The notes under the pieces were generated by a model. It saw only the letters and a list, made by a program, of their open reading frames with translations. It ran no database searches and was not told the DNA's origin. Of a DNA stretch of 32,000 nt, positions 9,440 through 25,489 are shown piece by piece (position 1 is the first letter of the stretch; every line of letters starts with the position of its first letter). The position numbers and the translations under genes are program-made. Source of the DNA: Nostoc sp. PCC 7120 = FACHB-418 (GTDB lineage Bacteria; Cyanobacteriota; Cyanobacteriia; Cyanobacteriales; Nostocaceae). The stretch lies in NCBI RefSeq assembly GCF_000009705.1, contig NC_003272.1, forward strand, positions 3,660,001 through 3,692,000. The letters run 5' to 3'.

Positions 9440-9820
9440 TTAGGGACTTGCAGATAAACTAAAATCATTAAATCTTTGCTGGATTGACGATATATATTTA
9501 TCATCCCAAGTACTGCCTAGTAATAGTACCCAATCCCCTTCATCTGAGGGAAATAGATGAATGTCTAGAGCAATTCCATTATTCGTTTTGATATGGGGTA
9601 AAAACAAAGGAATATCATCAAGTGGTAATAGCCCTTCTAAAAAAAATGCTTGCTCATTAATTTTCGCTCCCTGACAGAGATTGGTGAATCCATATTTAGC
9701 TATATCACCTCCCCATGTTAATAAGCTACCATCTTTTTTTACTAAAAAATAGGCAAGCGATCGCTCCATCAAGATCATATCCAGTAGATAGTTAATTACT
9801 GGATTAGGTATATTTAGCAT
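9440..9820 (-). CDS. Hypothetical small protein, possibly an alpha/beta sensor-like fold, coupled to the GTPase gene
   Basis: 126 aa. The ATG follows the GTPase TAA with no spacer (TAAATG), and GGAGA lies 5 nt upstream. No catalytic motif was seen. The pattern AYFLVKKDGSLL...DIHLF...WVLLLGST resembles N-terminal PAS-like modules of cyanobacterial signalling proteins, which is inference only. Confidence 0.6.
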   Translation of the reverse strand: MLNIPNPVINYLLDMILMERSLAYFLVKKDGSLLTWGGDIAKYGFTNLCQGAKINEQAFFLEGLLPLDDIPLFLPHIKTNNGIALDIHLFPSDEGDWVLLLGSTWDDKYISSIQQRFNDFSLSASP

Positions 9821-10318
9821 TTATGTCTCCATAATTTTTTGAGCCAGAATTTGGAAAACATCTTCTACTCCTATTCCAGTTTTAGCACTAGTTTTTACTA
9901 CATTCCACCCTTTTTCTACTAAAGAATTAAGTTCAGCCGGGTCTATCTCCCATTCATCAGTCATATCCCATTTATTCATCACTAAAACAAACGGAATTTG
10001 ACCAAGATTATCTTCCAAGCTATTCTGTAAACGATAAGCTGTTTCTAATGTATTCTTGCGAGTTCCATCTACTACTAATAAATAGCCAGAACAACCCCGC
10101 ATATATGACATTTGTAATTTTTGTAATTCATCTTCGCCATAAATATCCCAAATAATTAAATTAATGGAATTTTCTGGGAGATGAACAAGTTTTTTATCAA
10201 CTTTAACTCCAACAGTAGTTTGATATTTTTCCGAAAAAATACTATAAACAAATCTAGCTACTAAACTAGTTTTACCAGTAGCAAATGCACCCACCATACA
10301 AATCTTTTTTTGAATCAT
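9821..10318 (-). CDS. Ras/Rab-like small GTPase
   Basis: 165 aa with all five G motifs: G1 GAFATGKT, switch-I Thr in YQTTVGV, G3 WDIYGE, G4 NKWD, G5 TSAKTGIGVEDVF. It aligns by eye along the whole length of H-Ras. Confidence 0.85.
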   Translation of the reverse strand: MIQKKICMVGAFATGKTSLVARFVYSIFSEKYQTTVGVKVDKKLVHLPENSINLIIWDIYGEDELQKLQMSYMRGCSGYLLVVDGTRKNTLETAYRLQNSLEDNLGQIPFVLVMNKWDMTDEWEIDPAELNSLVEKGWNVVKTSAKTGIGVEDVFQILAQKIMET

Positions 10319-10333
10319 ACCCTTGAGTTTGAT

Positions 10334-12133
10334 TTATTTCGAGCTGCCAACCCTCATAATTATGACCTTGAAAGACACTCTGCGATTAAATTTTTTACCT
10401 TCATCTGTCAATTCTGGCTGCAAAGGTTGGCTAGAACTTACTCCTAATACTTGTAACTGGCTGGTGCTAATCCCTTGAGAAGATAGATAAGATAAAACTC
10501 TCTGACTGCGTCCTGCGCTCAGTTGAGCATTCCTTGATTCTGTACCAGTAGTATTAGTATGTCCTATTATTTGAATATGTACATCTTTCTCTAGATATTT
10601 AGCGATGGGTAAAAGTTTTTTAATTGCTAATACTAAGTTATTTAATTTAGATAATTCACTAGGAATAATTTCTTGAGAGCCTTCTGGAAAAAAGATAATT
10701 TCTCGCTCAATTTGACTTTGGTATATTGCTAATTCGTTTAATTCGCTTTCTACAAGATCCTGATCTTGAAATTGAGTTAATCCGGGTATTACAGACCATG
10801 ATTTACGTGTGGCTAAAATCCATTGACGGGGTGCAGAGCCAACAGCATAGAGAACGCCATTATGATCAATTCTTAGTGATGCAGTAGGTGGAGGTTGGAG
10901 TAATTTATTTACCCTTTTTATCATCAACTGGGGTTCTAAAGATAAATAACTTTGCCAATGACTGACAATTGTTTGAGGATTGAGTTTTGTTTGTTGTAGT
11001 AAGGTATGGGGATCTGATGCCAAGGGATCACGCAATCCAGAGATAAAATATTTACCGAACTGCTGTTTGGTGTCAGTTACCACAATACCGGGTTGAGAAT
11101 CGAGTTCTTGCAAGTAAGCACGCCAACGTAATTGCTCTCTGACAGCAAGAAAACTCCAAATCCCACAGGCGATCGCTATAATACCTAAAAAAGTCCAAGC
11201 GTATTTGTAACTTTTTTTTGACGCAGATTTAAATTTATACTGGCTGATTAGGCAAGATTCTAAATAAGGCTGACATACTTGAAATGGTTTTGCATCCCCA
11301 GCAAAGTCTTTCATCTCTCGACTCAGCTTGAGATGAATTTTTTCAATTGCTGTTTGCAGACTTAATCTCAATTCTTGGGGGGGATTACCCCGGATTGTCG
11401 CCGCTAATAAGGCTTGTGGCCCTTCTGTAATCCAGATTCGCAGTTCTCCAAAACGCAAACTTTGCAATTGATCTGTTTTTTGAACACTAAAAGAATCTTT
11501 GATAAAGTCTTGAATAGCGGTCAACATCGCCACCACTAAATCTGGGTCTTGGCTGGTTACTTGATTGGCTACAAGATGTTGCAACAATAATCCTGTATTT
11601 TTATGTATTAAGAATATCTGTTCTACTCGATAAACTAATGTCCGCAATAAAACTATTTCTGCAAATGGTTTTCCTGTACGTTTCGCTTCTAGTCGCCATT
11701 GCAAACTTTCCCAGGAAAAACTATGCTCTAGAGCTTGGTTGAGGGATTGCATCATTTCATCGAGCAATGTAGCGATCGCTTTCCGAGATGCAGGAATAAT
11801 GACTGGAAAAAAAGCTTCTGAAAGTATATTTTCATCTTGTTGAACAGAAACTTGAATCGCTTCTTCAACAATAGAAATCATCGCTGCAATTAGTTGTTTA
11901 TCTTGTTGCGATCTTAAGATCACAGCCTCTGGAAGTAAGCGACTAATATCTTCTGGTCTGATGTGTGGATTATCTAAAAGTTCATAAAGTTGGTTAAGTT
12001 TAGCTGGCTCAACTCCCAACAACAAACTCCGAAGTTTACTAAGTTCATCATCAACTTTAGTGATTTTGTTAATTAATGATAAGTCATTACCAGGGGATAT
12101 TTGACTGCTAGAATCTATTGCATCATTATTCAT
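10334..12133 (-). CDS. Bitopic membrane protein with a C-terminal OmpA/MotB-type peptidoglycan-binding domain
   Basis: 599 aa with a single TM at about residues 312-331, preceded by a Lys-rich stretch. The C-terminus has the OmpA-like signature (IQIIGHTNTTGTESRNAQLSAGRSQRVLSYL...NRRVSFKVI). The N-terminal 300 aa are soluble and have no recognised family. Confidence 0.85.
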   Translation of the reverse strand: MNNDAIDSSSQISPGNDLSLINKITKVDDELSKLRSLLLGVEPAKLNQLYELLDNPHIRPEDISRLLPEAVILRSQQDKQLIAAMISIVEEAIQVSVQQDENILSEAFFPVIIPASRKAIATLLDEMMQSLNQALEHSFSWESLQWRLEAKRTGKPFAEIVLLRTLVYRVEQIFLIHKNTGLLLQHLVANQVTSQDPDLVVAMLTAIQDFIKDSFSVQKTDQLQSLRFGELRIWITEGPQALLAATIRGNPPQELRLSLQTAIEKIHLKLSREMKDFAGDAKPFQVCQPYLESCLISQYKFKSASKKSYKYAWTFLGIIAIACGIWSFLAVREQLRWRAYLQELDSQPGIVVTDTKQQFGKYFISGLRDPLASDPHTLLQQTKLNPQTIVSHWQSYLSLEPQLMIKRVNKLLQPPPTASLRIDHNGVLYAVGSAPRQWILATRKSWSVIPGLTQFQDQDLVESELNELAIYQSQIEREIIFFPEGSQEIIPSELSKLNNLVLAIKKLLPIAKYLEKDVHIQIIGHTNTTGTESRNAQLSAGRSQRVLSYLSSQGISTSQLQVLGVSSSQPLQPELTDEGKKFNRRVSFKVIIMRVGSSK

Positions 12134-12375
12134 TAATATAATCCCCCAAACTACACTCTATAATTAGATAATTTTTTAGGCAAACTAGCCAGGAGAATTA
12201 GAATATATCTGGCAATATTTACCTCTTAAGTAAGCCAATGGGGACAACATAAAACTATATAAATAAAGATAAGCTAGGCTAAAAACCTCTTTCTTAGCCT
12301 TACAATCTCTGCCTTATCCAACCTGCAAATATTTACGCTGTTCTGCTTATGTACTGAAAATATTGGATGATTTTC

Positions 12376-12978
12376 TTATTTATTTAGCCGAAAAGCAATT
12401 TCTGTGAATAAATCTGCCAGATGAGTCCGGTCAGCTTTATCATGACTTAGTTGCTGAGTTTCTTTTTCTATCAAACTATTTATTTCTTCATATTTTTGTC
12501 TAATTTCATCTTGTAAATTTTTCGATTGAATTAAAATTTGTTCGCGTAGATTACGTTGATTACTAATAGTTTGTTCAGCAAACTGAACCAATTTCTTCTC
12601 TAATGATGTATGAAGAAATTTATACTCCTCCGTAATTGCTTTTAAATGAGATTCTCTTTCCATTTGCTCATTTTTTATACTTTCACTTAAAACTTCAACT
12701 TCCGCCTTTATATATACCTCTAAAGCATCCAAGCGTTCTTTAGTTTCATCTCGTACATGAGATAATTCTTTAACTATCCGTTCTTCCAAACCAGCAAACC
12801 TCTTGTCGAGTTCCTGCATTTGGTTACCAATGAGAATCTCTCTAATTTTGTCTAAATTATTACTTTCACTAACACTAGTACGGGATTGTTGTTTATTTAT
12901 TGTTGAATTGATGCTACCGTTCTCTAATGATCTTGCATTGTTATCGGTAGAGGCTTCGGTTAGATTCATAGATGACAA
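12376..12978 (-). CDS. Coiled-coil protein, hypothetical
   Basis: 200 aa. A Ser/Asn-rich N-terminus is followed by about 150 aa of heptad-like charged sequence (LEERIVKELSHVRDETKERLDALEVYIKAEVEVL...). Confidence 0.65.
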   Translation of the reverse strand: MSSMNLTEASTDNNARSLENGSINSTINKQQSRTSVSESNNLDKIREILIGNQMQELDKRFAGLEERIVKELSHVRDETKERLDALEVYIKAEVEVLSESIKNEQMERESHLKAITEEYKFLHTSLEKKLVQFAEQTISNQRNLREQILIQSKNLQDEIRQKYEEINSLIEKETQQLSHDKADRTHLADLFTEIAFRLNK

Positions 12979-13117: not shown

Positions 13118-14503
13118 CTAAATCAGAAACCGGATTAACACATACAATGCTGAGGCAATTAGTTGTAATATTGTGACTGGAATACCATAGTGAAGAAAAG
13201 TTTTAAAAGAAATCCGTCGTCCGTGCTGTTCGGAAATTCCCGCCGCTACGATGTTAGACGATGCACCAACTAACGTACCATTCCCGCCTAAGGTTGCACC
13301 AAACATCATGGCGTAAAACAATGGTAAAACTTCTGGGGGAAATTGTCCTTGAAAGTCGCGTGCTAAGACTTCTGCGGGTGCTAATCCTACAGTGACAAGG
13401 TATTGCTTGAGCAGGGGAACCATCGCCACTACCAAGGGAATATTAGGTACGACACTCGATAAAATTCCTACAAGAAACAACAACACCAGAGAACCCAAGA
13501 TAATATTTTTTCCTAAAATAGCTGCCAATATCCCTGATAGACCACCAATTACGCCTGTTTTTTCTAATCCTCCAATCAGCACAAAAATACTCATAAAAAA
13601 TATTAATGTACTCCAGTCTACATCGCGCAAAATATTGTTGACTGTATCAATTTTGCTATGGTGAGATAGTAGTAAAGCCAAAGCTGCGCCTAACAGAGCC
13701 ACAGCCGCCGGGGAAATCGGTATTGGCAGGGATTCTCCAATCACAAAAAATAGCAGGACAAAAGCGACAATTACTGCACCCAGACTCAAAACCCGTGGAT
13801 GATTAATTTCTGGGTGTGGTAATTCTTCCAGATTCTCTAATTTTGTATGCCAAATTTTGCGGAATAAAAATGGCAAAGTGAGAGTTACCACAGCGACTGC
13901 AATGACACCACCTAAACTCAGTTTCCATAGATAATCTATAAAACTTATATTGACAGCATCACCTACAATAAATGTTGCTGGGTCACCTACTAATGTCAGC
14001 AATCCAGCACTATTGGCAATCAAAACCATCAATATCAATAAAGGTACAAAATTTATCCCTATTTCTTGTGCCATTGGTGGAATTAGTGGCGCTAACAACA
14101 TCACTGTTGTTGCATTTGGTAAAACTGCACAAATAGGAGTAACAATAGCAACAATACCGAGTAAAAGACGCTTACCATCGCCTTTAGCTAATATCACTAT
14201 TTGGGTTGCCAAATAATCAAATATCTTAGTAGGCTCAAATGCTCTAACTAAAACCATTACACCAAAAAATAATCCCAGTGTGCCATAACTATTACCAATG
14301 TAAGCAACAGCTTCCTGTAAAGTCATCACATTAGTAAATACTAATAATAATGCTCCTAATAAGGCTGCAATAGTCAAATGCACCCATTCCGTCATAACTA
14401 GAAAGATGACACTGATAAATACGATGACACTTAGGAGTGCTTGCCAGTTTTCCACGCCTACCTCTTGTAGCTTATATTGTTGCGTAATAGCGAAAAAAGT
14501 CAC
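13118..14503 (-). CDS. ArsB/NhaD-superfamily (CitMHS/SLC13-like) ion permease
   Basis: 461-aa polytopic membrane protein with blocks typical of this superfamily (LLTLVGDPATFIVG, GGNGTLVGASSNIV). The GTG start at 14503 lies inside a hairpin. An alternative GTG at 14455 is preceded by AGAGG. Confidence 0.75.
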   Translation of the reverse strand: MTFFAITQQYKLQEVGVENWQALLSVIVFISVIFLVMTEWVHLTIAALLGALLLVFTNVMTLQEAVAYIGNSYGTLGLFFGVMVLVRAFEPTKIFDYLATQIVILAKGDGKRLLLGIVAIVTPICAVLPNATTVMLLAPLIPPMAQEIGINFVPLLILMVLIANSAGLLTLVGDPATFIVGDAVNISFIDYLWKLSLGGVIAVAVVTLTLPFLFRKIWHTKLENLEELPHPEINHPRVLSLGAVIVAFVLLFFVIGESLPIPISPAAVALLGAALALLLSHHSKIDTVNNILRDVDWSTLIFFMSIFVLIGGLEKTGVIGGLSGILAAILGKNIILGSLVLLFLVGILSSVVPNIPLVVAMVPLLKQYLVTVGLAPAEVLARDFQGQFPPEVLPLFYAMMFGATLGGNGTLVGASSNIVAAGISEQHGRRISFKTFLHYGIPVTILQLIASALYVLIRFLI

Positions 14504-14570: not shown

Positions 14571-15275
14571 TTATTCATCTATACATTCAGGAATCCCTAA
14601 GACAGCACAGGGGAAATTATAACCTAAGGTTTCAATGAGAGGATGATAAACAGATTTACAACCCAAAAATAAGATATCAGCAGCTTCAAATTCTGCAACT
14701 TTTCTCAACTCTGTACTTACACAACCGAAGCGTAGATGAGATTTGAATGAACCTTGCCATTCTTCAGCCAAAGTTCTTGCCTGCCAAATAATTCTATCTG
14801 CTTCTTGCAGTGGTGTTAGTGTGTCTGTTTGAAGATATGATTTAATTCCTGTCAGTTTCGGTTGAGTAATTACAGATGTGCTGGATTTTTTTGTTTCACT
14901 TGGCGGCAATTCTATTGTCGGCAAGCGTTTAGCAAAGCTTAAAATATTAGAACGATTTTTTGTGTTGCTATCTTCTACTACATAAACAGCTTGCACAGTG
15001 ACTTGTTGATTAGTCGCCAACCTTGTTTGATGGGCAATCCAACAGGCTATATCTAGTGCTGTATGGCTGTTAGGAGAAGCGTCATAACCAACAATTAAGT
15101 TGATTGATTGTGTTGTTTGACCTTTTTGGGGTTCTGGTAATAAAACCATTTGGTCAATTAAATCATCACGACCCATAGCACTTTGCAGGCGTGCTAACAT
15201 TGGCTTAATTTTCACAGCTTTAACTTCTCCTAAACTTAACGAACACATCAACGAGAAGCAGGGTAAAACGGACAT
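14571..15275 (-). CDS. Universal stress protein (UspA)-like protein
   Basis: 234-aa ORF. INLIVGYDASPNSHTALDIA and ADILFLGCKS...CAVLGIP resemble the first strand and C-terminal blocks of USP domains. No canonical G-2x-G-9x-G(S/T) ATP motif was seen. The start is uncertain: 15275 ATG, 15215 GTG after AGGAG, or 15200 ATG. Confidence 0.6.
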   Translation of the reverse strand: MSVLPCFSLMCSLSLGEVKAVKIKPMLARLQSAMGRDDLIDQMVLLPEPQKGQTTQSINLIVGYDASPNSHTALDIACWIAHQTRLATNQQVTVQAVYVVEDSNTKNRSNILSFAKRLPTIELPPSETKKSSTSVITQPKLTGIKSYLQTDTLTPLQEADRIIWQARTLAEEWQGSFKSHLRFGCVSTELRKVAEFEAADILFLGCKSVYHPLIETLGYNFPCAVLGIPECIDE

Positions 15276-15330
15276 TCATATCCGTAAGGAAACCCCAATA
15301 ACAACTGGTATCAAAGCCAAAGTCTTGGGG

Positions 15331-15540
15331 GTTCCTTCCATTGCCGACGGAGTTAGCTGACGGGCTAAGACTGGAAGGTGTCTCTCTTTAAGAGTGCGGA
15401 GTAATGAGTAATGAGTGCTGAGTTTAATACTTGGTTACTCTTGACTGTTTACTCTAGGTTAGCTACTCTCTGCAAGATGCGCCCCATAACATGGTTCCTC
15501 CGTTCCAAATGATTGCAAACTTAATTTGAATTAGGCTACC
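15331..15540 (-). promoter_or_regulatory. c-di-AMP riboswitch-like leader (ydaO-yuaA class), copy B
   Basis: The minus strand reads UUCAAAU-loop-AUUUGGA ACGGAGGAACCA UGUUA UGGGGCGCAUCU ... CCUUCCA GUCUUAGCCCGUCAGCUAACUCCGUCGGCAA UGGAAGG. The blocks ACGGAGGAACC, UGGGG..AUC and CCCGNCAGCUAAC.CCG..GGCAAU match the ydaO aptamer as I remember it. It is paralogous to copy A. Confidence 0.7.
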
Positions 15541-15563
15541 CACTAAAGAGATAATAGACTACT

Positions 15564-16424
15564 TTACTCTTCTTGAGCAAAATATTTGTCGAGAAAGTTT
15601 AAGGCATGATTACGAAGTTCAAAGTATGCTTTTGAGTTACGTATAGCAGACCTGTCGCGTGGATGAGAAAATGGTACTTCTAATATTTCTCCAATGTTTG
15701 CGGCTGGGCCATTTGTCATTAATACGATGCGATGGGCTACGCCCCGCCGTAGGCGATCGCTCATATAAATTGCCTCATCGACATCATGGGTAATCATCAT
15801 TACTGCTTGGCGATTATTTTCCCAGATATCTAATACTTGTCTTTGTAATTTACCTCTAGTTAAATCATCTAATGCGCCAAAAGGTTCATCCATTAACAGC
15901 ATTTTTGGACGAATGGCTAAGGCTCTGGCACTCCCTACTCTTTGTTTCATACCTCCAGAGATTTCATCAGGATATTTATCTGCTGCCGGGGTCAAGTTTA
16001 CCATTGCCAAGTGTTTGTTCACAATGCCAATTTTTTCTGCTCCATTAGCATTTTTTAACACTTCATCAACTGCTAGACGGATATTTTTCTTCACTGTTAA
16101 CCACGGTAAGAGGGAATAATTTTGAAATACCATCATTCTTTCCGCACCTGGCTTGTGAATTTCTTTACCGTCAAGCCTGACTGAGCCAGAAGTGCTTTTT
16201 TCTAAGCCCGCCACAATTTTTAATAAAGTGGATTTGCCGCATCCAGAATGTCCAATTACAGAAATAAATTCGTTTTCAATAATAGTTAAATTCACCCCAT
16301 CTAAAACAACAAAGTTACTTTTATCTGGTGTTAGATAAGACCTAACTAAATTCTCAATTTCTAAAAAATTAGTGCGCGGTATAGCTTTGTCATGAGCATC
16401 TATTGTTGATGGTGTATATTTCAT
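15564..16424 (-). CDS. ABC transporter ATP-binding protein, NitT/TauT (NrtD/CmpD/SsuB-like) family
   Basis: 286 aa with Walker A GHSGCGKST, signature ISGGMKQR, Walker B LLMDEPFGALD and H-loop ITHD. AGGAG lies 8 nt upstream of the ATG. Confidence 0.9.
   Translation of the reverse strand: MKYTPSTIDAHDKAIPRTNFLEIENLVRSYLTPDKSNFVVLDGVNLTIIENEFISVIGHSGCGKSTLLKIVAGLEKSTSGSVRLDGKEIHKPGAERMMVFQNYSLLPWLTVKKNIRLAVDEVLKNANGAEKIGIVNKHLAMVNLTPAADKYPDEISGGMKQRVGSARALAIRPKMLLMDEPFGALDDLTRGKLQRQVLDIWENNRQAVMMITHDVDEAIYMSDRLRRGVAHRIVLMTNGPAANIGEILEVPFSHPRDRSAIRNSKAYFELRNHALNFLDKYFAQEE
15729..15752. repeat. 24-nt in-frame palindromic mini-insertion (small-dispersed-repeat-like) inside the ABC ATPase gene
   Basis: The coding strand reads GATCGC|CTACGGCGGGGCGTAGCCCATCGC|ATC. 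This adds LRRGVAHR between the normally contiguous SDR and IV(L/M)MTNGP. It is flanked by direct ATCGC and has a near-palindromic core (GCCTACG...CGTAGCC). Confidence 0.5.
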
Positions 16425-16480
16425 ATCAAATGCTCCTAAAAGTTTTTAACTATGTATCAATAAAAATCAAAATTCCCAGT

Positions 16481-17180
16481 TCAAGACATGAAAAAACGAG
16501 TAGGAGCGTTAGCCCTAATTGCAGAACTATTTAAATACCCAACAGGGTTACTGGGGTCAAAACCTTTCTTATCTATAAAATACTTCTGGTGGTTCAACCT
16601 TGTAATCATCCGGGGAACATTGAATCCCCATTTCGGCAGCTATCTGGCGATATTGTTCATGGTCATGGCGTTACCGTGACGATAGATTGTTATGGCTGCA
16701 CATAGGGGAGAGAGGAGCGTGCTATGCGGGCGTTGATGACTGCACCAGATACGATAAGCGCAGCATCAAGACGACCATAAATTAAGCCGTCGCAGGAGGT
16801 AGCCCAACTGGCTTCGCGGTTGAGTTGGACGTTTAAGCCATACTTGCGAAAGAAGCCTTTTTCCAGGCGATCGCAAATGGCGCACAATCATTTATGGGAA
16901 AGTATCCGACAATCAAATCGGGTTTTTCTAAATCGCTGGATTTGATTACTGGTTTGATGGCTAGGGCTTCTTGGGTTAGGCCTTGGGCAACTAACGCTTC
17001 TGGTGGAGTGGGCATTAATTCATGATTTGCCAGGGTAATAACCCACCACAACAAGATAATTCCTAAGAATCCCAAGGCAGGAAGTACGACTACATCCCTC
17101 ATCAAAATTGGTTTTGCTGTTTTCCATGCAGATTGAGTCGCAACAGCTGCAATCGCTGCTAAATTTAATTGAAATATCAT
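16481..17180 (-). pseudogene. Decayed NitT/TauT ABC transporter genes: a permease N-terminal fragment fused to frameshifted, internally deleted NrtA/CmpA-like binding-protein fragments
   Basis: Three minus-strand frames each carry pieces. The first is a permease-like N-terminus (ILMRDVVVLPALGFLGIILLWWVI...LMPTPPEAL). It runs directly into a binding-protein block (LEKPDLIVGYFPINDCAPFAIAWKK). After a frameshift comes GFFRKYGLNVQLNREASWATSCDGLIYGRLDAA. The last pieces are C-terminal fragments EQYRQIAAEMGIQCSPDDYKVEPPEVF and FIDKKGFDPSNPVGYLNSSAI. Only about 700 bp remain where more than 2 kb would be expected. Confidence 0.75.
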
Positions 17181-17280
17181 TGTGCCACCCCAACAGAGTT
17201 AAGTGCAGGTACGAAAACATGAGCAGTACCAGCCTTGGACACTGACGAGAGCAAAACATTTATCAAATGCTGTCTCTTCA

Positions 17281-17490
17281 GTCTCCTCTCAATGCCTACG
17301 AAGTTAGCTGACGGGCTAGGGCTGAGAGATGCCCCTCTCTGGCGAGTGCTGAGTAATGAGTTCTGAGTTCAGTATTTAGCTAGATTTAATGTTTAACTCT
17401 TGACTCTTTAGTTGACACTCTCTGTGAGATACGCCCCACAAATTGGTTCCTCCGCTCCAACCTTAAATACTATGGTGGGTTGGATTAGGC
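17281..17490 (-). promoter_or_regulatory. c-di-AMP riboswitch-like leader (ydaO-yuaA class), copy A
   Basis: The minus strand reads UCCAACC-loop-GGUUGGA GCGGAGGAACCA AUUUG UGGGGCGUAUCU ... AGAGGGGC AU CUCUCA GCCCUAGCCCGUCAGCUAACUUCGUAGGCAU UGAGAG GAG. These match the hallmark ydaO blocks (GAGCGGgGGAaCCA, UGGGGuGAAUC, CCCGnCAGCUAACcUCGUAaGC) as I remember them. It lies about 100 nt upstream of the ORF at 17180. Confidence 0.8.
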
Positions 17491-17634
17491 TGACTTACTC
17501 GAATAGATAATAATAAACCTTACAGTAACATCTTTTTTACAGAAAAACAATCCCCAATTTGTAAATGTTGTTGACATCATTACAAACAGGTAACTGATTA
17601 TGGAAGTTTTCCGTAATTAATAACCGCAATTGAT

Positions 17635-19338: not shown

Positions 19339-20289
19339 ATGGACAAAAAGAGCAAGCCAGACTGGGCTGGTGAAAGTTTACTCTCCAATTTCGTGAATTT
19401 GTTGATTCAAACTAAACCCATTTATGGGGTGATGAAACAGCAGGCTAGACAAGTCCTCATCAAAACGGCTGAGAAAAACGGTATTCCCTGGCGGAAAAAC
19501 TACGAAGCACTCCAAGTATCACCTGCAAAAAAACTGCTGGCGGCGGTGACTAACCCTCATGTGATTTATCCCGACTACTATAAAGTACCCTTTCACGCTT
19601 ATACGGAAGGTAATTTATGCTGGGACGCTGCTTTTGAAACTGAATCAGCTACCTATGCAATGGCGTTGCGGGTATGGCCTCAAGAAAACCTAACTTGGGA
19701 AGCCGCTCATGCTAGGCTCAGAGGCACTTTTCATGACGCTTTAGAAACATACGCTCCCCAGCAGGTTAGAGATATTTTAGATATTGGTTGCTCGGTTGGT
19801 GTTTCTACCTTGGCGCTGCATCGTTATTACCAACGCCGGGAAAGGTATCCAGTCAGGACTGTGGGTTTGGATTTATCGCCCTATATGCTAGCTGTAGCTA
19901 AAACTAGGGATGTTAATAGTGAAATATCTGAATGGCTTCATGCTAGGGCCGAAAACACAGGCTTACCCGATAAATCTTTTGATTTGGTTACTATCCAGTT
20001 TGTTACCCATGAACTTCCTGGCTACGTCAGTCAGGAAATTTTCGCCGAAGCCAAACGGTTATTACGTCCTGGTGGTTATATTGCTCTAGTTGATAATAAC
20101 CCGCGATCGCCTGTCATCCAAAATCTCCCCCCCGTCCTCTTCACTCTCATGAAAAGTACTGAGCCGTGGAGTGATGACTACTACACCTTTGACATCGAAG
20201 CCGCGCTACAAGCCGTAGGTTTTGCACCACCAATCACAGTCCCCAGCGACCCCCGACACCGGACAATTATTGCGAGGAAACCAGATTAG
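19339..20289 (+). CDS. Class I SAM-dependent methyltransferase
   Basis: 316 aa with SAM motif I ILDIGCSVGVST and post-I/II blocks (VGLDLSPYML, LRPGGYIALVD). Confidence 0.85.
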   Translation: MDKKSKPDWAGESLLSNFVNLLIQTKPIYGVMKQQARQVLIKTAEKNGIPWRKNYEALQVSPAKKLLAAVTNPHVIYPDYYKVPFHAYTEGNLCWDAAFETESATYAMALRVWPQENLTWEAAHARLRGTFHDALETYAPQQVRDILDIGCSVGVSTLALHRYYQRRERYPVRTVGLDLSPYMLAVAKTRDVNSEISEWLHARAENTGLPDKSFDLVTIQFVTHELPGYVSQEIFAEAKRLLRPGGYIALVDNNPRSPVIQNLPPVLFTLMKSTEPWSDDYYTFDIEAALQAVGFAPPITVPSDPRHRTIIARKPD

Positions 20290-20318
20290 GGTTTAGGGGT
20301 GTAGGGGTATAGGGGTTT
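20287..20318. repeat. Degenerate 7-8-mer tandem repeat (TAGGGGT-like), complement of the 8113-8147 repeat
   Basis: Reading gives tagggtt taggggtg taggggta taggggtt, starting at the stop codon of the methyltransferase gene. Confidence 0.7.
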
Positions 20319-20426
20319 CAAACATTTGTTTTGAATTTTGAATTGATTCATAACCCTTATCCTTGGTATTTCGTTTTCATGCGTAATTCTTACCAGATTA
20401 AACCCAAACTCTGCGTACCCCCGCGT

Positions 20427-22118
20427 TTAAAGGCCAACTCTGTCCAGCATCGCCAAATGCTGACTGACCGGAGCTAGGGTATTAGCCACAATCATCCCAC
20501 TAGCAGCGACGGCTGGCAGACCGATACCGGGAAATGTGGAATCACCACAGCACATTAACCCTGGAAGGGGTGTACCATGACCAGGAAACAAACCAGAGGC
20601 GGCGGAAATTGCGGGGCCGTAGGAACCACGATAGCGGCGTAAAAATCTCTCATGGGTAAGGGGTGTACCTACCAATTGGATTTCACAACGAGAGCGAATA
20701 TCAGGAATGATACGTTCTACAGCTTGCCACATCACCTCGGCACGCGATCGCTTTTGTTGTTCATATTCCTGACTTCTTCTGTCCACCCCTTGCCACAGTG
20801 CGTAAGGTTCATTACCAGGAGTATATATAACGCGATGTGCGACTTATTTTTGAAACCCCTCTCCAAACCTCTCCCCAAACCTCTCCCCGAAGCGGAGAGA
20901 GGCTTTGAATCTTATTCCCCTTCCCTCGCAGGGAAGGGGTTGGGGGTTAGGTTTGAGAGAAAGTTGCACACCGCGTTATATATGAATTACGTGTTTGCCC
21001 TGTGGTGCTAAAGACGGGTCAAGAATTGAGGGAATCGATACCAAAACAACATTCTGGGGCGCAGTAATCCCCAATTCCCAATCATTCACCACAATATAAT
21101 GACAAGCCAAATCTAGGGGTAAACCTTGGGCATTAATACCCAGATGCAGGTGCATGAAACTATCACATTCGGGTGTGCCTTGGCGTTGGCTGCGGAATTT
21201 TTGGGATACAGCCCCCTCCGGTAATAACTTCAGCGTATCCCAGATCGAAGCATTAGACACAACCGCCCGCCGCGCCCGAATTTCTTGCCCACCTCGCAGC
21301 CCGACACCTACCGCTTTGTTACCTTCTACCAATATTTGTTCAACATGGGCATTGAGTAGCAATTCCCCACCGTATTTTTTTAATCCCTCTACCAAAGCAT
21401 TAACTAAAGCACCACTACCACCAATGGGGTAATCTAAAGCTACTCCTGGGCGATACCAATCGGCGAACATGAATGCTACCTCTGCCGCATTGGTTCCCGA
21501 AGCTGGGAGTCCAGAGAGGAGAAAACACAGTAAATTCAGCCAGTTACTAATAAACTGGTCATGGACAACCCCATCCATGATGCGAGAGAAAGGCCCCGTT
21601 AACTTGAGGAAATTCGCAGATTGTTTAGCCAGAGTGGGAGCAAATCTGCCGATAGTTAGTGCTGCGCCTATATCCCAGCGTAATGCAGCTGGGGGAAGAG
21701 CGATCGCCGCCTGGGCTAGTGGTGTCATCACCTGTTGCAACCGCCGCCATTCAGCCACCGCCGCCTCTCCCCGCAGTCTCCCCAGCACTTCACAAAATTG
21801 TTCTGCACCCACCGCAGCATCAAAATCACCTTCAGGTAAGCAACAGCCCCAAGTATCATAAGTGACCCAGGGCAAATCAACACCAACTGCATCTAGCACC
21901 TGTCGTAAAGGGTTAACCGAAGGACTATAAGACAAACCAGAGTAAAGAGAAGGCCCCGAATCAAACTTAAATCCTTGACGTTCAAAACCGTGCGCCGCCC
22001 CACCAGGGATCGAATGACTCTCACAAACAGTCACATCAAACCCATAACGCGCCAGTAAAGCAGCACAACTCAACCCCCCAACGCCGCTACCAATAACTAC
22101 TACATCTGTTTGCTTCAT
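20427..22118 (-). pseudogene. Phytoene-desaturase-family (COG1233, CrtISO/CrtH-like) FAD-dependent oxidoreductase, interrupted by a MITE
   Basis: The N-terminal 380-aa ORF (Rossmann motif VVVIGSGVGGLSCAALLA) ends in a stop created inside the insertion. The C-terminal part continues in another frame (YTPGNEPYALWQGVDRRSQEYE...VGTPLTHERFLRRYRGSYGP...CCGDSTFPGIGLPAVAASG). Removing the element plus one TA restores a single frame of about 510 aa. Confidence 0.85.
20828..20978. mobile_element. 151-bp MITE with 16-bp terminal inverted repeats inserted at a TA-rich site
   Basis: The terminal repeats are taacgcgatgtgcgac (20828-20843) and gttgcacaccgcgtta (20963-20978), matching 14/16. Internal hairpins are cctctccccgaagcggagagagg and ccccttccctcgcagggaagggg. 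The flanks read ...atata|element|tatata... Confidence 0.75.
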
Positions 22119-22148
22119 CCGCGTTTATCCGCGTTTATCTGCGTTTAA
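22119..22148. repeat. 10-nt tandem repeat x3 (CCGCGTTTAT) abutting the start codon of the oxidoreductase gene
   Basis: Plus strand: ccgcgtttat ccgcgtttat ctgcgtttaa. Minus strand: ttaaacgcag ataaacgcgg ataaacgcgg ATG. Confidence 0.8.
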
Positions 22149-22204
22149 TTTTTCCCCATCCAATACACTATTCTAAATTAGACAGTCCAGTAGGGTGCGT
22201 CATA

Positions 22205-22236
22205 CAATTTAAAATTCAAAATTCAAAATTCAAAAA
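22205..22236. repeat. Heptamer tandem repeat (AAATTCA x3-4)
   Basis: Reading gives caattta aaattca aaattca aaattca aaaag. The complementary ttgaatt ttgaatt is seen at 20330-20346. Confidence 0.8.
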
Positions 22237-22309
22237 GTAGATTATACAACCTAGACACAACAGGACTTTTCACCCAGCCCCCAATCCCCAGTCCTACCTA
22301 AAAACCCCT

Positions 22310-22336
22310 AAAAAAAACCTCCCAATTTGTGGGAGG
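22310..22336 (-). terminator. Rho-independent terminator of the 1040-aa gene
   Basis: The minus strand reads CCTCCCAcaaaTTGGGAGG followed by TTTTTTTT, 31 nt after the stop codon. Confidence 0.8.
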
Positions 22337-22366
22337 TGAGAAATTTAGCAGAGAAAATTTGTCTAC

Positions 22367-25300
22367 CTACACGAGAACAACCGCGATCGCTCCTCCTAAG
22401 GCGGCGAAAACTGCGGAAACCACTGCTGTGGCAAACAACCACCAAGAAGCTGTGGCGGCGGCTTTGCGGGTTTCTTCGGCTTGCCGTTGGGCTTGATGTT
22501 TCACTTCTTCCAGGCGGCGCTGTGCTTCGTGTTGTAGGCGTTCGGCCCGTTGTAATACGGTGTTGCGCGCTCGTTCTATTTGGTCAATTACGCGGTTAGC
22601 ATCTTCCTCTGAGATGTCATCGCGGGAACTGACGATCGCGACTAAGGTTTCGCGGTTGAATGAGGATAGGCGATCGCGCAACGCATCGAATCCGGCTTGT
22701 GGGTCTTCTAATAAGGTGCGAACATCCCGCTTAATGCCGTCGTAGTTAAGTTCGGGACGTTCCAAAGCGTTGAGATAGTTACGAATGCGGGCAAAAACCC
22801 CGTCTATTACGTCATGAATTCGCCGTTGGATACTCCGCACCTGTTCGACAAATTGCTCTTGTACGGAAACTATATTATCGGCAATTCTGGCTGCTTCCTC
22901 GTCGCTGATATCTTCTCGAATCTTCAACAGAGCAATAATTGTGGAACGGTCAAAATGGGCTAGGCGATCGCTAAAGCTTTCTACCCCGACGCGTGGATCA
23001 TGCAGTAATAATTGCAAGTCACGTTTAATTCCTTCTGGATTTAATTCTTCCTTACCAGTTTGTCGCAGGTATTCTGCCAAGTATGCTTGGAAGTTCTGCA
23101 CCTGTTGCTGAGTGCGGGTAGCTAGGCGACGGGGCGCGCGCACGATATTGCGGATGGAACCTTGTACTGAGTCAATCACCTCATTAACTTGCTGTTCGCT
23201 CAAGTCTTGGCGCTGACTGAGTAATTTTACTAAGGTGTCCCGGTCTACTTGGGACAAACGACGGCGTAAAGCAACTGCACCTTCCTGGGGGTTTTCAAAC
23301 AGTCTATTTAAATCTCGTTGAATCCCTTCGGGGTTAAGTTCTTCTTTACCTGTTTTTCGCAGGTAATCAGCAATGGTTGTAGTTACAGAGTCGTATTGCT
23401 CTTTGGCTTTGTCGGCTACTATTTGGGGTGTATGGCGGACACCATGCCAAGACTCTTCCACAGTATGAATAATTTGATGTGCTTGGTCTTCGCTAATATC
23501 TTGACGTTGACTGAGCAACTGTACCAATGTTTCCCGGTCAAAACGAGATAAACGCGCCCGAATGGCCGAGATTCCAGCTTGGGGATCTGCTAATAGTGTT
23601 TTCAGGTCGCCACGGATAGCATCGGGGTTTAGTTCTCCTTTACCAGTGTTACGCAGATATGACTCGACATTTAACCACAGGGTTTCTGCTTGATATCTGG
23701 CTTGGTCTGCCAAGTTTTTCGACTCTAACAAGACGCGATCGCGCTCTCTTTCCAAATCATCAATAATTCTGTCTGGCTCTCCTGGCTGCATATCATTGCG
23801 TTCTAACAATATCTGCTGCATGGAGTAGCGGTCAATTATTGCCAGTCGCCGAGTCAAGGTTTCATGATCTGCATCGGCATCTTCCAACAGAGGTTTGAAA
23901 TCTCTCTCAATTCCTTCTGGTGTCAAATCTGCTTTATTCGTCACCAGCAAATAACTTTCGATTCGGCGTTGCAAATCTTGGGTAATTTCTCGTTCTTCGT
24001 CGGCTGTGACTATCACCAGCACTGACTGACGCACAGCTTCTAGCTGGTCGGCAATGTGCTGAATTTGTCCTTGGGTAAGCAGTCCCCGTTGTTGCAAGAT
24101 GTTCACAAAATCATTGCGGGAAAGGCGTTCTAGTTCCCGGCGCACTGTCCCAGGATCGGCGGCTGGGTCATGGATGACATCGCGGAATTCTTCCGCAATT
24201 CTTTGCTCGCTCAATTGCCAAGCATAGGTGTTAGACAGATAGTTTTCCACATCAGCCCGAATGGGGCTATATGGTTGTGATGGCACAGGTAAGCCTAATT
24301 TACCTGCTTGATCTGTGGCTTTATCTTTAGCTGTGGTGAGTGCGTGCCAAATTTTTTCCACATCCAAATCAGATAAATCTGTTCTCCCCAACGCAATCCC
24401 AGTGAGTGCGGATATACCTTGCTGGATTGTGCTTTGAATTGGCCCGGCTGGTGCAGCTTTTTGGTCTGTTTCCTTCGCGGAACGGCTTTCGGAGATTAAT
24501 CTGTCCAACTTGGCGCTGAGTTCATCAGTCTTAGCTTGTCCCGGTGGTAAGGATTTCAGATATTCAACCAACTCACCCAAACGGTCTGGAGTCGGTTGTT
24601 GCTGAGTTACCGTTTGCTGCCAAACATTGTATAAGGTGTCAGCTATCCGCTTCACGTCTCGCTTGGAAAGGTCGGTACGGCTACTCACTAAATCAATGAA
24701 CTTTTGCCGATCAATATTACGTAAGTCTGGACTACCGGCGATCGCTTTTAATTGAGGGTCACTCAGTAACCTTTCAAACTCACTGCGAATATTAGATATA
24801 TCTAACTCTGGTGGACGCAGTTTTTCAATATAATCTTCTATGTTTTCACGGATACTGAGAGGGTCGATGGCACTACCTAATTCCCGACGCATGGCGGCGG
24901 CGGCGGCTTCGGCTGTAGCTACAACCTGTTGATTAACGGCTTTTGCTCCCAAAGCGGCGGTAGCTGTCCCCATAATCGCCTGAAAGCCAGAGGTGGCAGT
25001 GTTAACTACCGAGCCGATGAGAGAACCAACTGTCGTGGAACTCACCCAAACTAACAGCAGGAAGTATGCACCCCAAATCACCAGACCGAGAATTGCCCCT
25101 AATCTAGGGTCTAGAATTACTAGGCTGAGTTTGACCGCCAAGAAAGAAGCGACTAATAAGGCGATCGTCACAGTAATTAGTGTCCACAGCCCCACAGCTG
25201 TCCCAATCTTGCGAATCGTCCCGCCAAAGCTTCCTGTTTCCTCTGTATCCGACCCTGAGTCAGATGAACGCCCCAGGTAGGAAATACCTGCGGCTACAGA

Positions 25301-25489
25301 AAGGTTGGTTAATACTAACTGGAAGGCAAAGGCGAGAATTACCCCAGAAAGCAAAGCCACAAAAAAGCGCGGGCCGGAAGTCAGAACCGATGCCTGTGCT
25401 GGTGTAACCCCTGTTGTCTCGACTGGAATCTGTGCTGCCCACAATAGGGGCTTGAACAGTTTCAATGTAATTTCCGTACTTTGAAACAT
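22367..25489 (-). CDS. Large repeat-containing membrane protein (N-terminal TM bundle, 8 repeats of about 97 aa, C-terminal TM tail)
   Basis: 1040 aa. Hydrophobic helices lie at about residues 41-63, 97-120 and 128-150, and at the extreme C-terminus (WWLFATAVVSAVFAALGGAIAVVLV). Internal repeats start near residues 219, 309, 416, 512, 610, 709, 806 and 905, with consensus YL..TGKEELNPEGI.RDL..LL.DP..G...L..RLS..DR.TLV.LLSQR.D+SE.Q. Confidence 0.85.
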   Translation of the reverse strand: MFQSTEITLKLFKPLLWAAQIPVETTGVTPAQASVLTSGPRFFVALLSGVILAFAFQLVLTNLSVAAGISYLGRSSDSGSDTEETGSFGGTIRKIGTAVGLWTLITVTIALLVASFLAVKLSLVILDPRLGAILGLVIWGAYFLLLVWVSSTTVGSLIGSVVNTATSGFQAIMGTATAALGAKAVNQQVVATAEAAAAAMRRELGSAIDPLSIRENIEDYIEKLRPPELDISNIRSEFERLLSDPQLKAIAGSPDLRNIDRQKFIDLVSSRTDLSKRDVKRIADTLYNVWQQTVTQQQPTPDRLGELVEYLKSLPPGQAKTDELSAKLDRLISESRSAKETDQKAAPAGPIQSTIQQGISALTGIALGRTDLSDLDVEKIWHALTTAKDKATDQAGKLGLPVPSQPYSPIRADVENYLSNTYAWQLSEQRIAEEFRDVIHDPAADPGTVRRELERLSRNDFVNILQQRGLLTQGQIQHIADQLEAVRQSVLVIVTADEEREITQDLQRRIESYLLVTNKADLTPEGIERDFKPLLEDADADHETLTRRLAIIDRYSMQQILLERNDMQPGEPDRIIDDLERERDRVLLESKNLADQARYQAETLWLNVESYLRNTGKGELNPDAIRGDLKTLLADPQAGISAIRARLSRFDRETLVQLLSQRQDISEDQAHQIIHTVEESWHGVRHTPQIVADKAKEQYDSVTTTIADYLRKTGKEELNPEGIQRDLNRLFENPQEGAVALRRRLSQVDRDTLVKLLSQRQDLSEQQVNEVIDSVQGSIRNIVRAPRRLATRTQQQVQNFQAYLAEYLRQTGKEELNPEGIKRDLQLLLHDPRVGVESFSDRLAHFDRSTIIALLKIREDISDEEAARIADNIVSVQEQFVEQVRSIQRRIHDVIDGVFARIRNYLNALERPELNYDGIKRDVRTLLEDPQAGFDALRDRLSSFNRETLVAIVSSRDDISEEDANRVIDQIERARNTVLQRAERLQHEAQRRLEEVKHQAQRQAEETRKAAATASWWLFATAVVSAVFAALGGAIAVVLV

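Follow-up and report, generated by a model that had tools for sequence, protein, structure and literature searches.

What are the four co-oriented genes that occupy positions 9440-12978, on the minus strand, of a 32,000-nucleotide (nt) stretch of the genome of Nostoc sp. PCC 7120, and do they belong to a known system? This stretch, at its full length, is referred to below as the window. In the direction of transcription, the genes encode a coiled-coil protein of about 200 residues, a 599-residue bitopic protein with a C-terminal OmpA domain, a 165-residue Ras-like GTPase and a 126-residue protein. An earlier reading, made from the sequence without database searches (the sequence-only reading), had taken them for a candidate envelope-anchored GTPase module that could not be assigned to any described system. 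We find that the cluster represents, in PCC 7120, the Group 1 Rup system, which was catalogued in 2014. We propose, with a probability of roughly 0.6, that it constitutes an envelope-anchored small-GTPase signalling switch.

Identity of the cluster

The Rup family ('Ras superfamily GTPase of unknown function in prokaryotes') was introduced by Wuichet and Søgaard-Andersen (2014, Genome Biol Evol 7:57; PMC4316618) in a survey of the Ras-superfamily GTPases of prokaryotes. Its Group 1 members share eukaryote-like G motifs in which the G3 glutamine is lacking, and among prokaryotic proteins they are reportedly the most closely related to eukaryotic Rab, Ras, Rho and Ran. Their neighbourhood contains genes for a cytoplasmic coiled-coil protein, DUFY, and for a protein composed of a DUFX domain, an inner-membrane helix and an OmpA domain. 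A fourth gene encodes a GGDEF/EAL or histidine-kinase output protein with an invariant Gln in its N-terminal region. The authors proposed an envelope-linked, conservon-like signalling system in which the Gln is supplied in trans. Table S2 of that paper lists the locus studied here as 'Rup Group 1' of Nostoc PCC 7120, with the gene order <Rup<OmpA:DUFX<DUFY and a GTPase of 165 residues. The table also includes Ava_0879 of Anabaena variabilis and Npun_F1891 of N. punctiforme.

The features of the window locus agree with this description. The GTPase is a single-domain member of the Ras superfamily with eukaryote-like G1-G5 motifs and no Gln after the DxxG of G3. It is adjoined by the 599-residue protein, which has the DUFX-transmembrane (TM)-OmpA architecture, and the coiled-coil (DUFY) gene is adjacent. 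An output gene of the GGDEF/EAL or kinase type was not found at the locus, where the only other gene of the cluster encodes the 126-residue protein, described below as PAS-like.

The common orientation, coordinates, sizes, spacings and domain layout given in the sequence-only reading agree in every detail with the open reading frame (ORF) table, the sequence and the Pfam matches. Its statement that the cluster could not be assigned was not borne out, since the locus stands in Table S2 of the 2014 paper. It had also named membership in an already characterised system as a ground for giving up its proposal, and this ground applies in so far as the system has already been described. Literature searches on all3028-all3032, Npun_F1889-1892 and Ava_0878/0879 found nothing. 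Searches on Rup after 2014 returned plant RUP papers and passing mentions only, and no experimental study was found among them.

The present analysis extends the 2014 account by a wider synteny survey, by the assignment of the 126-residue protein as a stand-alone PAS-like input module, and by the observation that the neighbouring kinase gene is absent in the PCC 7120 clade although the core is conserved. A tentative addition is that DUFX may be roadblock/longin-like.

Conservation of the gene arrangement

The DUFX cytoplasmic domain was searched for in one genome per species across 185,579 species. At least 514 loci were found, and 80 were retrieved with flanks; ORFs were called in these and searched with family profiles. 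The GTPase gene lies directly downstream of DUFX in all assessable loci (73/73), with a median gap of 15 nt, and DUFX is immediately preceded by the coiled-coil gene in 73 of 75. A homologue of the 126-residue protein follows the GTPase in 52 of 70 loci, and the gap between the two genes is exactly 0 nt in 28 of these 52. This recurrent arrangement is far beyond chance. The genes thus form a clearly co-conserved module. The sequence-only reading had named a lack of co-conservation as a ground against its proposal, and the survey shows the opposite; the tight coupling of the last two genes, to which it had drawn attention, is kept.

The loci span Nostocales, other Cyanobacteria (including Gloeobacterales and Sericytochromatia), Acidobacteriota, Dehalococcoidia, Gamma- and Deltaproteobacteria, and one metagenome-assembled genome labelled Heliobacteriaceae. 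DUFX copies from Dehalococcoidia are without the OmpA part. A DUFX profile search returned more than 6900 homologues at E <= 1e-10, including sequences from Planctomycetota and Mesorhizobium, and the named homologues carry only 'OmpA family protein' or similarly generic labels. Compared with the window GTPase, the syntenic GTPases are 48-62% identical in sequence when they come from other phyla and 52-65% identical when they come from cyanobacteria outside Nostocales.

The Group 1 Rup system is not mobile. No phage record with the DUFX cytoplasmic domain was found. The domain is present in 5 of 72,556 plasmid records, all of them megaplasmids scored as non-mobilizable.

Megaplasmids NZ_CP024792.1 of Nostoc flagelliforme and NZ_CP117772.1 of Nostoc sp. 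UHCC 0926 encode a distantly related paralogue of this cytoplasmic domain (identity 23-24% over 85% of the query). Nostoc may thus have a second DUFX lineage that has diverged.

The Rup GTPase

The 165-residue protein matches the Pfam Ras model over residues 5-163 (E = 2.3e-31), and its closest sequence matches in the PDB are Rab23 and Rab6. It carries a G1 motif of GAFATGKT, T35, a G3 motif of DIYGED, and canonical NKWD and SAK motifs. The position of Ras Gly12 is occupied by Phe12, which is conserved family-wide, and the position of Ras Gln61 by Glu62. Gln is absent from the G3 position in every matched motif among the syntenic GTPases (0/74).

In the biochemistry of Ras, Rap and Rab, a bulky residue 12 combined with the lack of Gln61 is expected to slow GTP hydrolysis and to make residues in trans necessary. 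The window GTPase would likewise hydrolyse GTP slowly and depend on residues in trans. A hydrolysis residue supplied by a partner is expected because the GTPase lacks a catalytic Gln of its own. In addition, no C-terminal lipidation motif was found in the 165-residue protein; therefore any membrane association must come via partners.

The DUFX-TM-OmpA protein and the coiled-coil protein

The 599-residue protein contains a single hydrophobic segment at residues ~311-333, as located by a hydropathy scan. An N-in, C-out topology is favoured because five Lys residues precede the TM helix and the net charge after it is zero. Pfam assigns residues 482-584 to the OmpA family (E = 3.7e-14). An AlphaFold2 (AF2) model was built from a 40-sequence multi-phylum alignment and has a mean predicted local distance difference test (pLDDT) score of 76.6. 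The score exceeds 90 in the periplasmic part, and its 10-residue-block means range from 48 to 88 in the cytoplasmic part (residues 21-300). In the model, long helices occupy residues 19-165, a TM helix residues 310-346, alpha/beta repeats residues ~347-480, and an OmpA-like domain residues 482-596.

The most conserved block of the protein lies in its cytoplasmic part, at residues 158-282. It contains the motifs VEQIFLIH (VEQxFLIH in the family) and MLTAIQDF and the invariant residues E171, Q172, and H177. Arg117 and Trp146, which are located N-terminal to the block, are also invariant in the DUFX family. Pfam, NCBIfam and PADLOC models gave nothing above threshold on the first 300 residues, and profile searches against PDB sequences with the uncharacterised parts of the cluster returned OmpA matches or noise only. 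Residues 169-275 are predicted to fold in the order beta-beta-alpha-beta-beta-beta-alpha, with block mean pLDDT scores of 52-88. As a lead, this modelled element order resembles that of roadblock/LC7 or longin domains. Roadblock/LC7 and longin domains are classic regulators of small GTPases. Single members of the DUFX family give sub-threshold Pfam matches to Fuz_longin_1 (E = 0.033) and Robl_LC7 (E = 0.11; 1 of 24 members).

The best Foldseek matches of the periplasmic part are OmpA C-domains, Pal, MotB, and Rv0899, and YfiB structures are also among the matches to the OmpA domain. The OmpA-like domain carries the motifs GHTNTTG and LSAGRS, the latter keeping the Arg of the LSxxRA motif. The Asp of GHTD contacts peptidoglycan, at diaminopimelic acid (DAP), in characterised OmpA-like domains. 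The wider-family consensus is GHTDxxG, and Nostocales have Asn at the Asp position (Asn527 in GHTNTTG; residues 521-527, window 10553-10573 (-)).

The OmpA domain also matches PADLOC models of ZorB (best E = 8.8e-10), as it might in an anti-phage or other conflict system built from an NTPase switch and a membrane component of the ZorB/MotB type. These matches are confined to the generic OmpA domain, however, and the other three proteins match no defence model significantly. A MotA/ZorA partner is absent, as is any Asp in the TM helix. Moreover, the genes keep their order from phylum to phylum, members of the clade have conserved flanks, and the cytoplasmic domain is absent from phage records and limited to the five non-mobilizable megaplasmid records. 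The domains associated with the system are signalling enzymes, not toxins or nucleases. A defence function is thus highly improbable.

A stator of the MotAB, ExbBD or ZorAB type was considered separately and rejected, as the TM helix (YAWTFLGIIAIACGIWSFLAV) is without Asp and no MotA/ZorA gene is found nearby.

The coiled-coil protein has 197 residues when read from the ATG at 12969, as in the public annotation (BAB74731.1), versus 200 residues from the TTG at 12978. Its family is characterised by an N-terminal motif (NLDKIREILIGNQMQELDKRF) and a C-terminal motif (DRTHLADLFTEIAFRLN), and searches of Pfam, NCBIfam and PADLOC gave only weak matches of a coiled-coil type.

The coiled-coil protein and the 599-residue protein contain similar N-terminal helical motifs, LDKIREILIGNQMQELDKRFAGLE (12780-12860 (-)) and LSKLRSLLLGVEPAKLNQLYELLD (11960-12050 (-)), respectively. 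Each motif is highly conserved within its own family. Homology between the two is not claimed, the pairwise hhalign score (E = 0.031) being too weak.

The PAS-like protein and its fusions

The 126-residue protein has no match in Pfam, including the Pfam PAS models, or in NCBIfam or PADLOC. In its AF2 model (pLDDT 84.7), the chain begins and ends with a helix; between these lie the five strands of a sheet, with short helices separating strand 2 from strand 3 (H-E-E-h-h-E-E-E-H). The Foldseek matches of the model in the PDB are phytochrome PAS/PHY domains, the PAS-like domain of FlrB, the VC2136 kinase and LOV domains. They are modest, with E values of about 1e-3 and template modelling scores of about 0.5. 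By its predicted fold, the protein is a PAS-like domain. P66 and Q115 are the sole invariant residues in a diverse 39-sequence alignment of the family, and Gln114, Gly37, Gly38, Tyr43, and Gly44 are near-invariant. Both glutamines, Gln114 and Gln115, map to the C-terminal helix of the model.

A profile search of 1.84 billion representative proteins identified 825 relatives of the protein at E <= 1e-3. Homologues in Nostocales are all 123-152 residues long; longer proteins make up about two thirds of the representatives. The domain is located at or near the N terminus in 147 of the 150 matches listed. According to Pfam, it is fused to class III nucleotidyl cyclases (Guanylate_cyc), to HisKA/HATPase with or without PAS, GAF or REC, to Sigma54_activat AAA+ domains, or to PAS alone. 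The cyclase fusion is a ~340-residue form found in non-heterocystous cyanobacteria and Sericytochromatia. Because the homologous domain normally stands at the N terminus of signalling enzymes, the 126-residue protein is read as a stand-alone copy of an enzyme-heading input module.

Loci without this first family have a different N-terminal domain downstream of the GTPase. This second family is marked by the motifs FLENFLIDAEEFW and IQKARENQL and by an invariant Gln in the helix after IQKARENQL, and it is fused to histidine kinases (~370 residues), GGDEF-EAL or HD-GYP domains. It occurs in 55 of the 66 loci with enough flank, and at least one of the two PAS-like families lies next to the GTPase in 64 of the 66. 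The two families are treated as separate because hhalign gives a probability of only 0.6%. A Q-x-[A/x]-x-[E/N] helix motif is common to both. The fourth gene of the 2014 paper probably belongs to the second family, since the GGDEF/EAL and kinase outputs named there match that family.

Where the first-family gene stands alone (125-157 residues), which is nearly always in Nostocales, a second-family gene follows immediately in 34 of 34 surveyed loci, and it encodes the ~370-residue kinase in 33 of them. The components also occur within single proteins. Both PAS-like domains are arranged in tandem in L059:5055-6509 and L065:7217-9541, ahead of HD-GYP or PAS-kinase outputs. In the metagenomic protein P0260, the first PAS-like domain is fused to a DUFX-TM-OmpA protein with 41% identity to the 599-residue protein. 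As these fusions join the components, they support a physical association between them.

The same parts could also serve a spatial or polarity module, in which the anchored protein would mark septa or cell junctions, the GTPase would cycle on and off, and the coiled-coil protein would act as a cytoskeletal scaffold. The pairing of the GTPase with a DUFX domain of roadblock/longin-like predicted topology would fit such a module, as would the conserved coiled-coil partner and the lack of an enzymatic output at the PCC 7120 locus. MglA-type precedents are given in PMC4316618; MglA, MglB and RomR steer machinery to the poles. However, PAS-like genes follow the GTPase in 64 of 66 loci, and outside the stand-alone Nostocales form the PAS-like domains are fused to cyclases, kinases, GGDEF-EAL, HD-GYP and sigma-54 activators, which are classic signalling outputs. 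In addition, many of the host lineages have no known surface motility, and the G3 motif of the Rup GTPase is DxxG, not the TxxG of the MglA type. We therefore regard a polarity function as unlikely and favour the signalling switch.

The reduced module of the PCC 7120 clade

A tblastn search found no second-family gene in the window. None was found at this locus in T. variabilis or Nostoc sp. TCL26-01 either, and unrelated genes follow there. With the second-family gene missing, the module of the PCC 7120 clade is reduced, and no enzymatic output is encoded at the locus. When PCC 7120 is compared with T. variabilis or TCL26-01, the dN/dS ratio is 0.08-0.21 for all four genes, with dS up to 1.4. 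The flanking transporter genes have ratios of 0.04-0.06, so that the values of the Rup genes are 2-4 times higher. Judged from these ratios, the four genes are under clear purifying selection and are not decaying.

These data also bear on whether the cluster of this clade could be a functionless remnant, left after loss of the kinase gene and the PAS-like output domain. All 34 stand-alone loci elsewhere keep the second-family gene, which the PCC 7120, T. variabilis and TCL26-01 loci do not, and the T. variabilis orthologue of the 126-residue protein of PCC 7120 has 10 residues more. The raised dN/dS relative to the flanking transporter genes points in the same direction. On the other hand, none of the four ORFs is disrupted in any of the three genomes, the ratios are those of clear purifying selection, and both the translational coupling and the invariant residues are kept. 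A remnant without function is quite improbable.

A proposed model for a Rup switch

In the signalling switch that we propose, the bitopic 599-residue protein would be tethered to peptidoglycan and report the state of the envelope across the inner membrane. Its cytoplasmic helical region and roadblock/longin-like domain would recruit the GTPase and set its nucleotide state. GTP-bound Rup would bind the PAS-like modules, which in most genomes head cyclases, kinases or cyclic di-GMP (c-di-GMP) enzymes. The hydrolysis residue would be supplied in trans, with Gln115 of the PAS-like protein, or Gln172 or Arg117 of the 599-residue protein, as candidates. The coiled-coil protein would scaffold the complex. 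In PCC 7120, the 126-residue protein would act as a GTPase-activating protein (GAP) or adaptor without an output, and any output would be encoded elsewhere in the genome. The system as a whole probably links conditions in the envelope with cAMP/cGMP, c-di-GMP or phosphorelay outputs. Like the authors of PMC4316618, and as the sequence-only reading had done, we infer a physical link between the GTPase and the cell wall.

A more specific form of the model holds that the DUFX cytoplasmic domain is a true longin/roadblock platform for the GTPase and also that the PAS-like partner supplies the catalytic Gln in trans. We consider this combination doubtful. If it is true, the scheme known from eukaryotes, in which a Rab-like GTPase works with a longin/roadblock regulator and with a GAP providing Gln in trans, would already be present in bacteria and connected to the cell wall. 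A minimal and genetically tractable form of that switch, without output enzymes, would then be found in the PCC 7120 clade.

Several points weigh against the model. The roadblock/longin assignment of DUFX rests on the predicted element order and two sub-threshold Pfam matches. Profile searches against PDB sequences were negative, and hhalign of the beta-alpha-beta block with human DYNLRB1 was not significant (E = 0.46), with the elements in register. The top 50 Foldseek matches for the whole 599-residue model were all OmpA-like, the list being saturated by the OmpA domain. With Asn527 in place of Asp, peptidoglycan binding by the 599-residue protein is not certain and may be altered. The helix bearing Gln115 is of low confidence (pLDDT 55-66), and Gln115 may have a structural role in a signalling helix and not be a catalytic finger. 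The lack of an output domain at the locus leaves the signalling reading of the PCC 7120 copy incomplete. Finally, the literature search found no measured interaction, GTPase activity or phenotype for any Rup system.

The Rup family comprises the bacterial small GTPases most similar to eukaryotic Ras and Rab, and DUFX systems are widespread in Cyanobacteria, Acidobacteriota, Chloroflexota, Planctomycetota and Proteobacteria. The PCC 7120 copy is a practical place to study the switch because the four-gene form occurs there in a standard genetic model. Its value lies in being a well-defined experimental target and not in the discovery of a new cluster.

Locus anatomy and neighbouring genes

The four window proteins are exact sequence matches to BAB74728-BAB74731 of Nostoc sp. 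PCC 7120. NCBI names the GTPase 'Rab family GTPase', the 599-residue protein 'OmpA family protein', and the other two 'hypothetical'. The stop codon of the 599-residue protein and the ATG of the GTPase are separated by 15 nt. The TAA of the GTPase abuts the ATG of the 126-residue protein gene, with a GGAGA sequence just 5' (ggagacataaatg). The coordinates of these features are collected in Table 1.

Table 1. Features of the Group 1 Rup locus, in window positions
Feature	Position	Strand	Accession or basis
Coiled-coil protein gene (DUFY)	12376..12969 (ATG start) or ..12978 (TTG start)	-	BAB74731
242-nt spacer between the coiled-coil gene and the three-gene operon	12134..12375	-	sequence
599-residue bitopic protein gene (DUFX:OmpA)	10334..12133	-	BAB74730; >6900 homologues at E <= 1e-10
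Most conserved block of the 599-residue protein (residues 158-282)	11288..11662	-	AF2 model and alignments
Single TM helix of the 599-residue protein (residues ~311-333; YAWTFLGIIAIACGIWSFLAV)	11135..11203	-	hydropathy scan; AF2 helix 310-346
Periplasmic part of the 599-residue protein	10346..11095	-	Pfam, AF2, Foldseek
165-residue Rup Group 1 GTPase gene	9821..10318	-	BAB74729; Pfam Ras
126-residue stand-alone PAS-like protein gene (predicted fold)	9440..9820	-	BAB74728; AF2, Foldseek, profile alignments
Codon of Gln115 of the 126-residue protein	9476-9478	-	family-invariant residue

A terminator-like hairpin is located at 12276-12300, inside the 242-nt spacer. A promoter and terminator scan of the region gave site counts that were not above shuffle expectation. 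The hairpin is taken as no more than suggestive because the count of terminator-like sites did not exceed that expectation. The downstream neighbour of the cluster encodes the tripartite ATP-independent periplasmic (TRAP) binding protein all3028 (BAB74727).

On the upstream side, a Usp-like gene (14571-15275) and a CitMHS/ArsB-type transporter gene (13118-14503) are co-oriented with the cluster and lie immediately upstream, 139 nt from the coiled-coil gene. The window contains two cyclic di-AMP riboswitches (Rfam RF00379), at 15327-15547 (-) and 17278-17501 (-), which score 51 and 67 bits against a gathering score of 38. The first of them is directly upstream of the Usp-like and transporter genes. 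This layout recurs in 3 of 8 other Nostocales loci examined, and in L004 the order is riboswitch, Usp-like gene and coiled-coil gene. The proximity of the riboswitch to the Rup cluster may reflect shared regulation or inherited synteny only.

Further along the window, an apparent remnant of an ATP-binding cassette (ABC) transporter occupies 16424-17180 (-). Its permease ORF (16833-17180) encodes 115 residues, compared with 283 in L001 and L013. A gene for a binding protein of ~480-510 residues, which lies between the permease and ATPase genes in those two loci, is missing from the window. The truncated region suggests a deletion in PCC 7120. Positions 20000-25000 of the window have a G+C content of 0.46-0.50, versus about 0.38-0.41 elsewhere, and include a 1040-residue ORF at 22367-25489 (-).

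Comparison with known systems

The cluster shares with the Group 1 Rup system the GTPase family, the DUFX-TM-OmpA protein, the coiled-coil DUFY protein, and the gene order. However, two differences are found. First, the GGDEF/EAL or histidine-kinase gene of the 2014 paper is absent from the PCC 7120 locus. Second, the gene coupled to the GTPase here encodes a stand-alone PAS-like domain, by its model, and its family is distinct from the one fused to kinase, GGDEF-EAL or HD-GYP domains.

Like MglA/MglB (with RomR-RomX) of Myxococcus xanthus, the cluster places a bacterial Ras-superfamily GTPase beside a presumed regulator, possibly a roadblock-like one. The two systems differ in the G3 motif, which is DxxGE in Rup and TxxGQ in the MglA type. 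There is no stand-alone MglB, the best Robl_LC7 match (E = 0.11) being below threshold, and the partner in Rup spans the membrane once and carries an OmpA domain. The conservon (CvnA-D / Mfp) is also a multi-gene operon that links a small GTPase, a membrane sensor and two-component-type parts, an analogy drawn in PMC4316618 as well. No CvnA-type kinase, CvnB roadblock or CvnC/DUF742 match is found in the window cluster, and its GTPase belongs to Rup, not to the MglA family. The separation from both systems that had been claimed from the sequence is thus upheld by the DIYGE of G3 and by the absence of Robl_LC7, HisKA/HATPase and DUF742 matches above threshold.

In eukaryotes, TBC RabGAPs provide a Gln finger and RapGAP provides an Asn, and Mon1-Ccz1 and Ragulator are guanine-nucleotide exchange factor platforms of the longin/roadblock type. 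Anand et al. are cited in PMC4316618 on this regulation of Rab and Rap. The window cluster resembles it in three respects: Rab23 and Rab6 are the closest structures by sequence, the GTPase has no catalytic Gln of its own, and the partner is longin/roadblock-like by prediction. In contrast, no TBC or RapGAP domain is present, and the candidate fingers would lie in the PAS-like protein and DUFX.

The YfiB-YfiR-YfiN (TpbB) system provides a parallel on the envelope side. YfiB differs from the 599-residue protein in being an outer-membrane lipoprotein that acts via a periplasmic repressor, and the system contains no GTPase. The likeness lies in the logic, whereby a peptidoglycan-binding protein of the OmpA type passes information on the envelope to a second-messenger enzyme in the cytoplasm.

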